Below, piece after piece: positions 16,342 through 23,594 of a stretch of DNA of 44,025 nucleotides. Position 1 is the stretch's first letter, and each line of letters opens with the position of its first letter. The DNA comes from a virus. Its lineage: Duplodnaviria > Heunggongvirae > Uroviricota > Caudoviricetes. The stretch is taken from IMG/VR virus record IMGVR_UViG_2917408641_000004. The stretch is one strand, 5' to 3'. The position numbers were made by a program, and so were the translations under genes. Under the pieces are notes generated by a model. It did no database searches, was not told where the DNA came from, and was given only the letters and a program-made list of their open reading frames with translations.

Positions 16342-17094
16342 ATGAACCTTGAAGCTTTACCAAAATATTACTCCCCAAAATCTCCAAAATTGAGTGATGA
16401 CGCACCGGCGACAGGCTCGGGTGGTTTAACAATAACAGATGTGATGGCTGCGCAGGGGATGGTGCAGTCGAAAGCTCCGCTTGGTTTTGCCTTATTCCTG
16501 GCAAAAGTTGGTGTTCAGGATCCTCAGTTTGCGATTGAAGGTCTGCTCAATTACGCGATGGCAATGGATAATCCGACATTGAACAAATTGAGTGAAGAAA
16601 TCCGGTTACAGATCATCCCTTACCTTGTGAATTTTGCCTTTGCTGATTATTCCAGGTCTGCGGCAAGTAAGGCTCGCTGTGAGTATTGTGCTGGTACTGG
16701 ATTTCATAATGTATTGCGCGAAGTGGTGAAACACTCCAGAAGTGGGGAATCTGTTATCAAGGAAGAGTGGGTGAAGGAACTATGTCAGCATTGCCATGGT
16801 AAGGGAGAAGTCAGCACAGCGTGCAGAGGGTGTAAGGGGAAAGGTATTGTCCTGGATGAAAAAAGAACCCAGCTTCATAGCACGCCTGTTTATAAGGTTT
16901 GTGGGCGTTGCAATGGAAACCGGTTTAGTCGTTTACCAACGACACTGGCGCGGTGTCATGTCCAGAAGCTGGTACCAGACCTGACGGATTATCAGTGGTA
17001 CAAAGGATATGCAGATGTCATTGATAAACTGGTTACAAAGTGCTGGCAGGAAGAAGCATATGCTGAGGTGCAATTAAGAAAAGTGACGAGATAA
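16342..17094 (+). CDS. Late-gene antiterminator Q
   Basis: 250 aa; multiple CxxC zinc motifs (CEYCAGTG, CQHCHGKG, CRGCKGKG, CGRCNG); located upstream of the lysis genes. Confidence 0.7.
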   Translation: MNLEALPKYYSPKSPKLSDDAPATGSGGLTITDVMAAQGMVQSKAPLGFALFLAKVGVQDPQFAIEGLLNYAMAMDNPTLNKLSEEIRLQIIPYLVNFAFADYSRSAASKARCEYCAGTGFHNVLREVVKHSRSGESVIKEEWVKELCQHCHGKGEVSTACRGCKGKGIVLDEKRTQLHSTPVYKVCGRCNGNRFSRLPTTLARCHVQKLVPDLTDYQWYKGYADVIDKLVTKCWQEEAYAEVQLRKVTR

Positions 17095-18918: not shown

Positions 18919-19209
18919 TGCTTTAAATGGGGCAATGGTAATGTTGAATCTCATCCCGGGACTCATGTCTGTTAACTTATTATTTAGCTGGTGACTTGGT
19001 TATTTGCCTGATGTTTAAAATGTTTTCTTCCAGTACAATGTCCCTAAACACAATGAGTCTGCTTATTATATTATTAGCAGAGCTATTACGGCCAAAGTAC
19101 AGCATAAGCTTTTAAAGCCAATCAACCAGTCATCAAGACAGACGGGGTTATTCATAAAAACTCTCCATGTGTGATCCGATGGGGCCTGAAATTAAAGCTT
19201 TAATATAGC

Positions 19210-19422
19210 TCATGAAAGGTAAACATTGGCAGCTGAAGGGCCACGCAGACCATTTATCCGGCAAAATTCCACGCGTAATCCGGTGGTAATTTCTTCTGCA
19301 TCGCGGAGATTGAGCGCTGAAACATGAAGCTGGACATCGATACGACCATCGGATGGGGTGATAAGACCCTTGCCGCTTTTGCCGTCAAAGGTTTTGACAA
19401 TTCCTGTCATTTTACGGGACAA
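19210..19422 (-). CDS. cspF: Cold-shock-like protein, CspF/CspH subfamily
   Basis: 70-aa product [40 protein letters not shown]; divergent from cspB as in the Qin prophage; cannot exclude cspH assignment. Confidence 0.75.
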
Positions 19423-19722
19423 AAAAATTCCTTAATACTGATAACTTGGCGCACTATACACACGTTCCTGAAGAAAGCTATAGTTTTTTGATGGGGTTGA
19501 AGATGGCTGGATGTCTAAAATAAACATTGCTTCATATGTTCAACTATGCGTTAATGATTGCGTCGGTTTGAAGAACAGACGATATACGAAGTAGTTTACT
19601 AAAGCAGTTCTCATTTCAGGTGTTATTCACTTATTCCTTCTTTGAGTCTCTCCAATTAAGTACGAAGTCGTTTCTGTTATACAAGCCATTTATGCCGAAA
19701 GGCTCAAGTTAAGGAATGTAGA

Positions 19723-19938
19723 ATGTCAAATAAAATGACTGGTTTAGTAAAATGGTTTAACGCTGATAAAGGTTTTGGCTTTATTTCTCCTGTTGATGGT
19801 AGTAAAGATGTGTTTGTGCATTTTTCTGCGATTCAGAATGATAATTTTCGAACCTTATTTGAAGGTCAAAAGGTTACCTTCTCTGTAGAGAGTGGTGCTA
19901 AAGGTCCTGCAGCAGCAAATGTCATAATTACTGATTAA
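19723..19938 (+). CDS. cspB: Cold-shock protein CspB
   Basis: 71-aa product [38 protein letters not shown]..; CspA-family RNP motifs. Confidence 0.8.
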
Positions 19939-20221
19939 AATTAATAGTTTGTCTGTATACGATAACGAAGAAGGCTGATGCCTGAGTGGAGATACAGACA
20001 GAGTGGTGAATATTGGATCTCTTTAATAAATAGTAAGGAGATCCAATACATGAAACAATGACCAGCATATTTGGCAATAACTTAATCAGGAAAAGTATGC
20101 TAACCATTGTGGTGAAGTGCAGGTTTGCTGCATGAATAGTTTTACAGCAGAAGCTAACTGCTAGCATAGCAAAACAAAGTGCGTAAGTGGATGACTCCCA
20201 CAAAAAGCACCACAATATTAA

Positions 20222-20242
20222 ACCCGCTCAGGCGGGTTTTTT
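20222..20242 (+). terminator. Rho-independent terminator downstream of cspB
   Basis: CCCGC-TCAG-GCGGG hairpin followed by TTTTTTATT. Confidence 0.6.
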
Positions 20243-20301
20243 ATTGTCTGCTTTAAATATGTTATTAAAATATAAAAAATACTTGTTACGAATAAAATCA
20301 A

Positions 20302-20472
20302 TCAAGCTACAGCTTTAAGATTTGTCTGGAATACTTTGTTGCAATGAGGGCAGATCAAAAGAGCACCTTTTTGTACTCTTGAAAAACTGTGTTCTGACTC
20401 TTGGGTGCAGTTTGGGCAGGAACATTTAACGAGATAATTACGGCGTGATTTTGAGTCTTTACGTTCTGACAT
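20302..20472 (-). CDS. Small zinc-ribbon protein
   Basis: 56 aa from ATG 20472 (AGGA upstream); two CxxC pairs (CPNC..CPHC). Confidence 0.4.
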   Translation of the reverse strand: MSERKDSKSRRNYLVKCSCPNCTQESEHSFSRVQKGALLICPHCNKVFQTNLKAVA

Positions 20473-20690
20473 AGGCTTTTCCTGTATAAATGGCCGTATA
20501 CAGTACACTAAATATGAAAACATATCTCGTATTATTATTTAATATATGATTTTCTTTTAAAATAATTACCCACATTTTTAATGTGTCTGTTTTTTAGCGC
20601 CGTTGAGAACAACGTTTGCTATAAAAACTAACCCATAGACTCCGATCTTTTCAAACATATTGCACCATCTGTGTACATCGGGGTGAGGAT

Positions 20691-20906
20691 ATGAAATCAA
20701 TGGATAAGTTAACAACAGGTATCGCCTATGGCACATCGGCTGGTAATGCTGGTTTCTGGGCATTGCAGTTACTCGATAAAGTAACTCCGTCACAGTGGGC
20801 TGCAATCGGTGTGCTGGGTAGTCTGGTTTTTGGCCTGCTGACATATCTGACAAACCTTTATTTCAAGATTAAAGAAGACAGGCGTAAGGTTGCGAGAAGA
20901 GAGTAA
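20691..20906 (+). CDS. Class II holin (phage 21 S-type pinholin)
   Basis: 71 aa; dual-start MKSM motif; two TM segments; sequence ..[58 protein letters not shown] typical of S21/EssD. Confidence 0.85.
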
Positions 20907-20910
20907 TCCA

Positions 20911-21462
20911 ATGACACAAGTCTATGAACTGGTTGTGAAAGGAGTCCGCAATTTTGAGAATAAAGTGGCGGTAACTGTAGCCTTACGGGACAAAAAACGC
21001 TTTGACGGTGAAATTTTTGACCTGGACATCTCGCTGGACCGTGTTGAAGGTGCCGCGCTGGAGTTTTATGAGGCAGCAGCGAGAAGGAGCATTAGACAGT
21101 TCTTCCTGGATGTTGCTGCCGGGTTATGTGAAGGGGATGAGCAGTCGCCGGAAAAGCGCCCCATAATTTTAGAGGCGCAGAATGTGTGGATAACCTACAA
21201 AGGAAAGCTACCGGGAAGAATTACTGGTTCTCTGAAGACGCCACCGACGGCATTGCGGTCAGAAAAAGATGATATTGAATCGCCCATTGAAAAACTGGAG
21301 GGCAGCGTCGCTGATCTGAATAAAAAATTGTCGGTGCTGATTCCTTCTGAAGATGAAAAAAAACGCCGCGATGAGCAGTTTGCGGCGTTTTACGATTATT
21401 GCATTGAAGTTACTCGCAGGAATTTTGTGAAGATTTTTGAGGAGGGTAAATCTCTTCAGTAA
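20911..21462 (+). CDS. Hypothetical protein inserted between holin and endolysin (YdfR/DUF1327-like by position)
   Basis: 183 aa from ATG 20911 just after holin stop; same strand as the lysis genes. Confidence 0.5.
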   Translation: MTQVYELVVKGVRNFENKVAVTVALRDKKRFDGEIFDLDISLDRVEGAALEFYEAAARRSIRQFFLDVAAGLCEGDEQSPEKRPIILEAQNVWITYKGKLPGRITGSLKTPPTALRSEKDDIESPIEKLEGSVADLNKKLSVLIPSEDEKKRRDEQFAAFYDYCIEVTRRNFVKIFEEGKSLQ

Positions 21463-21783
21463 GCTTAATGGCAGACGCTGCAATTAATTCAGGAAGGTCC
21501 GCAAGGTCATCTGTCAGTGGATATGATGAAAAATCGGCGGCAGTTCTGTTAAGAAGCGCTTTAACTAATTCCTTTTCCTTCTCCGGCAACAAGTTGATTA
21601 GAGCTACGACTGCTTGCCTGAGTGCGATTAAATCAGCAAAAGTTTGTTTTGGTAGATTTGTGTAATCCATAGTCACCTCTGTGTTTATCAGATTGACATC
21701 CTCCTCCCGCCAGTGCCCATCACTGGCGAGGTAAGATTTAACATATCCGGGGATTTGAAGCCGATAAATCCTGATAAATATCC

Positions 21784-22811
<1,028 letters not shown>

Positions 22812-23174
22812 ATTAATATTAAATCGGATTATTTTTAGCGCTGAATGTGAAATTTAAATAAAAAGGACTCTTCCATGAGTCAAAATCCTTGAAATCTTAA
22901 GGGTAAGATAAAAGGTCATTAGACAGAATGACACGTTTTATTAATAAATAAAGCTATTGTTTCATTCGTGTGTTTTTCTTTACAAAAGTAATCCTTGCTA
23001 TGGTTGGTTAATCATGCGTTAATGGTGTTCTGGTTTGTTACAAAATTATCTGAAGCAGTCATTGTTATAATTTTATTATTTGTACCTCTTGAGATTTCCT
23101 TGTTGGTTTTTCTCTCTGATATTTTTTTTCGGACCATTCTGCCCAAGGGCTAACTTCTTCAAAAGGTAATAATG

Positions 23175-23387
23175 ATGTCTAACAAAATGACTGGTTTAGT
23201 GAAATGGTTTAACCCTGAAAAAGGTTTTGGTTTCATCACGCCGAAAGATGGTAGCAAAGATGTGTTTGTCCATTTCTCAGCTATTCAGAGCAACGATTTC
23301 AAAACGTTAACTGAGAATCAGGAAGTCGAATTTGGTATTGAGAACGGACCTAAAGGCCCCGCGGCTGTTCATGTTGTGGCACTTTGA
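23175..23387 (+). CDS. cspI: Cold-shock protein CspI
   Basis: 70-aa product [70 protein letters not shown]. Confidence 0.8.
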
Positions 23388-23594
23388 GGTAGAAAATATT
23401 ACAAACCATATTCACTTTAGATGCCCGTGTTGCCATGGTTCTCAGTATAGAACATCATCTTTTGATGTTTCTGACAGGAATCCTTTCGGGGCAAAATGTA
23501 TCTTTTGTAAATCAATGATGATTACATTTGATAATATTTCACAATACTTAAATGTTAGCCGTCTGTCGTTAGATTTAAGAAAGTGAAAATGAAG

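Follow-up and report, generated by a model that had tools for sequence, protein, structure and literature searches.

A modular YdfR-family gene in the mosaic holin-lysozyme gap of a lambdoid phage: a lysis-cassette accessory with a possible link to RNase E

Introduction

What is a 183-aa protein doing between the holin and the lysozyme of a phage lysis cassette? The question is raised by a 44,025-nucleotide stretch of Caudoviricetes DNA (IMG/VR record IMGVR_UViG_2917408641_000004), the whole of which we call the window. The original prediction, made from the letters of the window, held that an extra gene interrupts a cassette whose parts are otherwise contiguous, that it presumably shares a late transcript with its neighbors, and that its product could modulate lysis timing or be unrelated cargo. 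Here, we describe the gene, its product, its relatives, and the DNA around it, and we weigh what the protein might do.

Results

An intact YdfR-family gene follows a phage 21-type holin gene

The open reading frame is intact, with its ATG at 20911 and its stop codon at 21460-21462, and it encodes 183 aa on the plus strand, the strand of holin and lysozyme, as had been predicted. Four nucleotides separate its start codon from the stop codon of a 71-aa class II holin of the phage 21 S type (20691-20906, plus strand; PF04971 'Bacteriophage P21 holin S', E = 7.3e-34; phrog_9876 and phrog_20, both holin families), in which we take Met1 and Met4 to be a dual-start motif like that of phage 21 S. Downstream on the plus strand lies a lysozyme gene of the rrrQ or R21 endolysin type (21784-22317; PF00959 Phage_lysozyme, E = 2.6e-24), annotated as rrrQ in a 99.7%-identical genome; the hydrophobic N-terminus of its product suggests a SAR domain. 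The cassette continues with a plus-strand gene for an Rz-like i-spanin (DUF2514; 22314-22811; PF10721, E = 1.9e-38; phrog_312). Inside that gene is a putative o-spanin Rz1 gene (22507-22761), assigned from its open reading frame and by analogy with K-12 rzoQ, which lies inside rzpQ. The Q gene (ydfT) is at about 16342-17094.

Two cspA-type thermoregulator RNAs (19562-20001 and 23017-23433; Rfam RF01766, 159 and 110 bits), each accompanied by a gene for a cold-shock protein, bracket the lysis cassette, the same bracket as in the Qin prophage. They were the only two features returned by an Rfam scan of 19000-23500, and both lie outside the YdfR gene; a GcvB match at 21355-21532, with 21 bits where the gathering score is 42, was rejected as chance. 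The cspB-like gene and the holin gene are separated by a strong terminator-like hairpin (20220-20239).

The profile search gave the DUF1327/YdfR-like result that the original prediction had expected. The match to DUF1327 (PF07041) scored 141.9 bits against a Pfam gathering cut-off of 25 (E = 7.8e-42) and aligned aa 1-112 with positions 1-92 of the 93-position profile, and phrog_2091 ('unknown function') spanned aa 1-183 of 183 (E = 2.5e-111). Homologs of 183 aa are labeled 'YdfR family protein' at NCBI, and the protein cluster of this length holds 681 member sequences.

The protein is acidic (pI 5.3), with a GRAVY of -0.44 and a top 19-residue Kyte-Doolittle mean of 0.81. We did not find a hydrophobic, transmembrane, or SAR segment in it (Kyte-Doolittle, 19-residue window), and a cytoplasmic location is proposed because no segment is hydrophobic. 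Judged from its sequence, the protein is best explained as a soluble, cytoplasmic accessory of Escherichia lambdoid phages. All seven PHROGs that it matched carry the label 'unknown function', and its Pfam, PHROGs, and NCBIfam results contained no lysis-category family. The original prediction had set homology to a known lysis regulator against its own reading, and no such homology was found in these three collections. An NCBIfam scan returned no match, and the PADLOC defense models returned no family at E up to 1, for either the YdfR frame or the minus-strand frame described below. A PDB sequence search gave only coiled-coil matches of chance level (E of at least 0.5), and Foldseek against viral models gave no match with E < 0.02.

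The arrangement is ordinary for E. coli prophages and nearly confined to Escherichia and Shigella

The slot itself is familiar from K-12. There, ydfR (b1555, P76160) of the cryptic prophage Qin lies 4 nt past essQ and ahead of rrrQ; the Qin order essQ-ydfR-rrrQ-rzpQ is that of the window, and the Qin neighbors match as well (cspF, cspB, and ynfU upstream; cspI, ynfN, and gnsB downstream). The two loci differ in what follows the shared start of the gene. K-12 YdfR has 103 aa, with an unrelated short helical tail from about aa 70, whereas the window protein has a 45-aa conserved linker and a 62-aa hairpin; and the K-12 ydfR stop codon overlaps the rrrQ start, whereas in the window a minus-strand frame and a 113-nt non-coding stretch precede the lysozyme gene.

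A 1.8-kb stretch of the locus is 99.4% identical in the plaque-forming phage 2H10, where the gene is an annotated CDS, and 99.3% identical in PhiR63_1, and the arrangement in both phages is identical to that of the window. A DUF1327 gene directly past an S21-type holin gene is also carried by PhiR12, mEp460, Stx2-converting phage 86 (gp05), and Stx1a and Stx2c phages. The phages compared other than 2H10 and PhiR63_1 have different C-terminal modules (protein lengths of 114, 169, and 268 aa) and unrelated antisense frames. Cassettes of the phage 21 and 933W type share the holin family and the GGAGAG-TAA-NNNN-ATG junction; however, in 933W it is R itself that starts at +4 after S, whereas in the window YdfR holds the +4 position and R is shifted 873 nt downstream, behind a leader.

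Among complete E. coli genomes, DNA of the YdfR N-domain occurred in 4348 of 5426 (about 80%), with up to 10 copies per genome. At least 80% of the 1.8-kb query was covered in 292 complete E. coli genomes; in the NCBI annotation of these, the genes are called essQ, 'YdfR family protein', rrrQ, and rzpQ. Both the family and its position are therefore already catalogued and very common. Thus, the gene is extra when compared with the contiguous S-R pair of 933W, as had been claimed, but it is not unusual, being standard in K-12 Qin and in prophages of about 80% of complete E. coli genomes.

Outside this host range the family thins out sharply. All 101 phage records with DUF1327 are E. coli lambdoid or Stx phages. 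A HMMER scan of 1.84 billion representative proteins yielded just 75 DUF1327 clusters, many of them fragments, and a one-genome-per-species scan (185,579 species), run with a 12-sequence alignment, yielded 8 loci, which came from E. coli, E. ruysiae, E. albertii, Shigella flexneri, and two metagenome bins labeled Veillonella parvula and Bacillota. The bin loci (L012 and L014) hold holin-ydfR-lysozyme cassettes of the E. coli type, one with K-12-type identities to the query proteins, and the bins are probably mis-binned Escherichia DNA. As far as these sequence surveys reach, the YdfR family is nearly absent beyond Escherichia and Shigella.

Within its range, the gene keeps close company with the holin gene. 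In 17 of 17 loci with a DUF1327 N-domain, the gene adjoins or sits just downstream of an S21-type holin gene, and in 16 of them it starts 3-4 nt past the holin stop codon; in the remaining one, metagenome contig L017, one gene intervenes. Phage phiSTEC1575-Stx2k (locus L020, 2281-4299) has an S21-type holin gene and ydfR, followed by antisense frames, a second holin pair, and an M15 peptidase gene in place of the lysozyme gene. Since this phage keeps the holin-YdfR pair and loses the lysozyme, the comparison of loci indicates that the YdfR gene is more closely tied to the holin gene than it is to the lysozyme gene. The reverse does not hold: S21-type holins occur in 438 phage records, against the 101 with DUF1327. 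Because of this difference, and because S and R are contiguous in 933W, YdfR appears from these records as an accessory of the S21 lysis cassette and not as a core part of it.

The 183-codon frame is a real gene

Several lines of evidence bear on whether the frame is a gene or a remnant of one. Eight pairwise comparisons of the N-domain, which reach a dS of 1.9, gave dN/dS values of 0.20-0.48, indicating purifying selection. Length variants of 176, 183, and 211 aa differ by in-frame indels, and the gene is intact in the plaque-forming phages 2H10 and PhiR63_1. Together with the DUF1327 and phrog_2091 matches, the N-domain dN/dS and the in-frame length variants lead us to regard the 183-aa frame, on sequence grounds, as a real gene and not a chance open reading frame.

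One annotation points the other way. In NZ_CP128578.1 (strain VG38-53E1; locus L001, 6312-6647), PGAP flags a 99.7%-identical copy as a pseudogene, 'YdfR family protein, incomplete, missing C-terminus'; codons 1-112 alone are annotated there, yet the 183-codon frame is intact. Read at face value, the flag would make the frame a decayed or chimeric pseudogene, with codons 1-112 as a YdfR remnant and the last 71 as accidental read-through into inserted DNA, and the C-terminal module, with a dN/dS of 0.5-0.67 (18 substitutions) that is no better than that of other reading frames, would fit such an origin. We consider this highly improbable. The extension is open in variants of 169, 176, 183, 211, and 296 aa, with in-frame indels of 7 and 28 codons; the C-terminal part has PHROG matches of its own and a predicted helical hairpin; and the 183-aa proteins, with their 681 cluster members, bear the NCBI family name too. 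Since the extension stays open across the in-frame length variants and is present in active phages, the PGAP flag is probably an artifact of comparison with short reference proteins.

The protein is predicted to consist of three modules

An AlphaFold2 model of the 183-aa protein (mean pLDDT 63.5), taken together with alignments, indicates a modular build of three parts: an N-domain, a linker, and a C-terminal hairpin. The N-domain (aa 1-75; 20911-21135, plus strand) is predicted to form strands at 5-14, 18-27, and 34-43 and a 24-residue helix at 50-73, with pLDDT of 70-87. It is common to every member of the DUF1327 family, and it is 82% identical to K-12 YdfR over 74 aa.

The middle segment (aa 76-121; 21136-21273, plus strand), which contains ...PEKRPIILEAQNVWITYKGKLPGRITGSLKTPP..., is predicted to be disordered (pLDDT < 50 over aa 75-121). 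Its sequence is 80-92% identical between alleles with N-domains that are just 57-64% identical. K-12 YdfR is without this segment, its sequence diverging from about aa 70.

The C-terminal module (aa 122-183; 21274-21459, plus strand) is a predicted helical hairpin, with helices at 123-143 and 147-181 and pLDDT of about 60-73. The module matches separate PHROGs (phrog_36381 and phrog_15975) and is optional, being found only in the forms of 169, 176, 183, 211, and 296 aa. The hairpin occurs in only about 5-7% of genomes, and the module together with the minus-strand frame was found in 364 of the 5426 complete E. coli genomes. On metagenome contig L017, the module opens a separate 209-aa gene that has the holin gene on one side and a 75-aa DUF1327 gene on the other, and at another locus (L018) a chimeric frame reuses it elsewhere. 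We rejected one further case, the protein P0151, in which the module stands beside a different lysis cassette, as evidence of a link to lysis; it is a chimera with a truncated copy of the minus-strand frame.

The gap holds a second open reading frame

The gap was described as holding a single gene. The YdfR gene is there, but so are a second frame, of 86 codons on the minus strand (21410-21670, with the 86 codons at 21413-21670; phrog_2572, E = 1.3e-53), and the 113-nt non-coding stretch between that frame and the lysozyme gene, which includes a conserved 46-nt leader. The modular build of the protein, the minus-strand frame, and the mosaic nature of the gap described below had no place in the original prediction.

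Running toward the YdfR gene, the minus-strand frame shares about 50 nt with the 3' end of ydfR (the last 17 codons). A GAGGTG lies 3 nt upstream of its ATG (5 nt for the GAGG core). The encoded 86-aa protein is acidic (pI 4.6) and has a RefSeq entry as a hypothetical protein, WP_001306174.1; its family is tiny, with 18 clusters that are nearly all from E. coli. The frame is open in the 91%-identical PhiR12 allele. Its dN/dS of 0.47, calculated from 13 nucleotide differences between two main alleles only, is not distinct from that of other reading frames. The protein model (pLDDT 72.6) has three helices, at 8-27, 30-48, and 56-74, and gave no specific fold match. Other phages carry unrelated antisense frames in the same slot, namely gp06 of Stx2-86 (104 aa) and a frame in Evi (98 aa).

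The edges of the gap are conserved and its content is exchanged

From the comparison of cassettes, the holin-lysozyme gap appears to be a mosaic swap slot. The left edge is fixed: '(G)GAGAG-TAA-NNNN-ATG' was found in all loci compared, 933W included, whether the next gene is ydfR or R, with a 3-nt spacer at the junction in the PhiR12 allele. The 3' end of the holin gene, GAAGAGAG (20896-20903), lies 7 nt ahead of the YdfR ATG and is probably the Shine-Dalgarno sequence of the YdfR gene. The junction is conserved whichever gene comes next (window 20896-20910; 933W locus L016, 2006-2020), which suggests that whatever gene follows has its ribosome-binding site inside the holin gene.

In cassettes that carry ydfR, the right edge is likewise fixed and consists of a hairpin and a leader. 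The hairpin, CGCCAGTG-CCCAT-CACTGGCG (21708-21728), marks the right edge of the inserted module. It is kept beside three unrelated inserts (the window/PhiR12 type, Evi, and Stx2-86) and appears in the fold predictions for both strands; neither strand has a T-run after it, and the terminator scan did not call it. In the Evi hairpin, a single changed position gives a C/A mismatch on the plus strand and a G-U pair on the minus strand. The leader of the lysozyme gene (21738-21783, plus strand), 46 nt of the form TTAACATATCC...GATAAATCCTGATAAATATCC-ATG, is near-invariant in 6 cassettes with otherwise different inserts and contains no Shine-Dalgarno sequence. It holds a direct repeat, GATAAAT...GATAAAT, and it base-pairs with 21681-21693 in the predicted plus-strand fold, which falls short of significance (z = -1.7).

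A repeated CCACCG...TGGC motif and the conserved hairpin delimit the insert, and the right arm of the hairpin is what remains of the end of the 114-aa ydfR allele on its 3' side (...CCACCGCTGGCCTGA). Because of this remnant, the sequence of the C-terminal module and the minus-strand frame (about 21247-21735) looks like DNA inserted into a short ydfR allele at its end; alternatively, the short allele was derived by deletion. YdfR forms of 72, 103, 114, 169, 176, 183, 211, 268, and 296 aa are known.

Scanning for regulatory signals did not reveal a promoter- or terminator-like site in 20567-21462 other than a weak terminator-like sequence ahead of the holin start (20601-20614); across the region, such sites were about as numerous as in shuffled controls. 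This agrees with the shared transcript that had been predicted for the YdfR gene. A moron has a flanking promoter and terminator of its own, and the scan detected neither for the YdfR gene. For the 86-aa frame, too, the promoter scan detected no promoter; by its orientation, this frame is a better moron candidate than the YdfR gene.

Discussion

The protein is best explained as standing outside the core lysis machinery. As to what it does, our tentative reading, which we hold to be possible but somewhat short of even, is that YdfR is a late-expressed accessory that targets RNase E or RNA and is translationally coupled to the holin gene. It draws on analogy with K-12. A bacterial two-hybrid screen recovered a fragment of K-12 YdfR (aa 1-72) that interacts with RNase E 1-597 and, at lower strength, with RNase G (Göpel et al., RNA Biol 2026, PMC13232886). 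The full-length K-12 protein, carrying a short linker, gave a two-hybrid signal with RNase E 1-597 only, and Strep-tagged K-12 YdfR co-purified RNase E 1-598; it also brought down DNase-resistant nucleic acid, for which the authors were unable to rule out a contaminating protein as the RNA source (PMC13232886). Overproduction of K-12 YdfR changed few transcripts and left growth unaffected, and the interaction data concern the 103-aa K-12 form under overproduction (PMC13232886). The envelope screen of Paradis-Bleau (2014), which the same paper cites for ydfR, does not name ydfR in its main text.

Applied to the window, this reading would run as follows. The gene would be transcribed with the lysis genes on a Q-dependent late transcript, and its translation would be coupled to that of the holin gene through the ATG 4 nt past the holin stop codon and the Shine-Dalgarno-like GAGAG in the holin 3' end. 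The N-domain, of which about 70 aa count here, would bind the catalytic N-terminal half of host RNase E, and probably RNA; we infer this from the K-12 orthologue because the interacting K-12 segment is shared, is 82% identical, and is under purifying selection. Late in infection, YdfR may then alter the decay or processing of some transcripts, and the conserved linker and the optional C-terminal hairpin may add a second surface for interaction or oligomerization. The nearest functional analog of this putative action is Srd of T4, a small phage protein reported to bind the catalytic N-terminal half of RNase E and to stimulate decay of host mRNA (cited in PMC13232886). However, Srd comes from a virulent phage, whereas YdfR is encoded in the late lysis operon of temperate phages. 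If the RNase E link holds for phage-borne alleles, YdfR would be a temperate-phage counterpart of Srd inside the lysis operon of Stx phages.

A function in lysis could explain the strict linkage to the holin gene just as well. YdfR would in that case be a cytoplasmic regulator of lysis timing that targets either the pinholin (its cytoplasmic C-terminal tail, for instance) or the release of the SAR endolysin, with T4 RIII, P1 LydB, and Mu gp23 and gp25 as conceptual parallels. The gene is always beside an S21-type holin gene, nearly always 3-4 nt past its stop codon (16 of 17 loci), the pair persists when the endolysin is swapped, and the family is confined to phages of Escherichia and Shigella with this type of holin. 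Yet adjacency and translational coupling would be expected of any gene inserted at the S-R junction, and the 933W-type cassette works without YdfR. The protein has neither a transmembrane nor a SAR segment, although T4 RIII is cytoplasmic and a membrane anchor is thus no requirement for a cytoplasmic lysis regulator. In addition, its profile matches include no lysis-category PHROG or Pfam lysis regulator, and overproduction of K-12 YdfR produces no growth or lysis phenotype. We regard a lysis-timing regulator as rather unlikely.

Another explanation that we consider unlikely is that YdfR, its C-terminal add-ons, and the antisense frames are unrelated cargo at the S-R junction, a recombination hot spot tolerant of inserted DNA; such genes would be selfish or host-directed, serving for example in exclusion or defense, and would take no part in lysis or RNA decay. 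The mosaic character of the slot speaks for it: nine YdfR lengths from 72 to 296 aa, three unrelated antisense frames sharing one slot, an insert flanked by the CCACCG...TGGC repeats and the conserved hairpin, and the reuse of the C-terminal module in chimeric frames elsewhere, as at L018. Against it, no PADLOC defense model matches, and purifying selection acts on the N-domain among alleles that reach a dS of 1.9. Moreover, the YdfR gene, lying in a late operon without a promoter or terminator of its own, is not expected to be expressed in the lysogen as typical morons are.

A broader and distinctly improbable idea would join several of these elements. YdfR might be a phage device that connects host RNase E with the lysis operon: translational coupling would keep its production in step with that of the pinholin, and its N-domain would dock on the catalytic half of RNase E, with the linker and hairpin recruiting or shielding RNAs such as the endolysin leader and hairpin, and so setting the stability or translation of endolysin mRNA and hence the timing of lysis; the gap would be a dedicated hairpin-bounded slot for the exchange of unrelated antisense genes.

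Returning to the RNase E reading, YdfR is a very common protein of E. coli and Stx prophages, and Stx phages are of medical relevance. Leads on its function are the RNase E link itself and the conservation both of the 'disordered' linker and of the leader and hairpin ahead of the endolysin gene, and the modular build and the swap slot point to three informative forms: the N-domain alone, the 114-aa protein, and the 183-aa protein. A minor observation concerns the N-domain. The protein P0188, a giant of 3128 aa with 15 G2F-domain repeats, gave six matches to aa 6-59 of YdfR (E = 8.9e-9, 34% identity), which may be a chance effect of its repeats or a hint on the origin of the N-domain fold.
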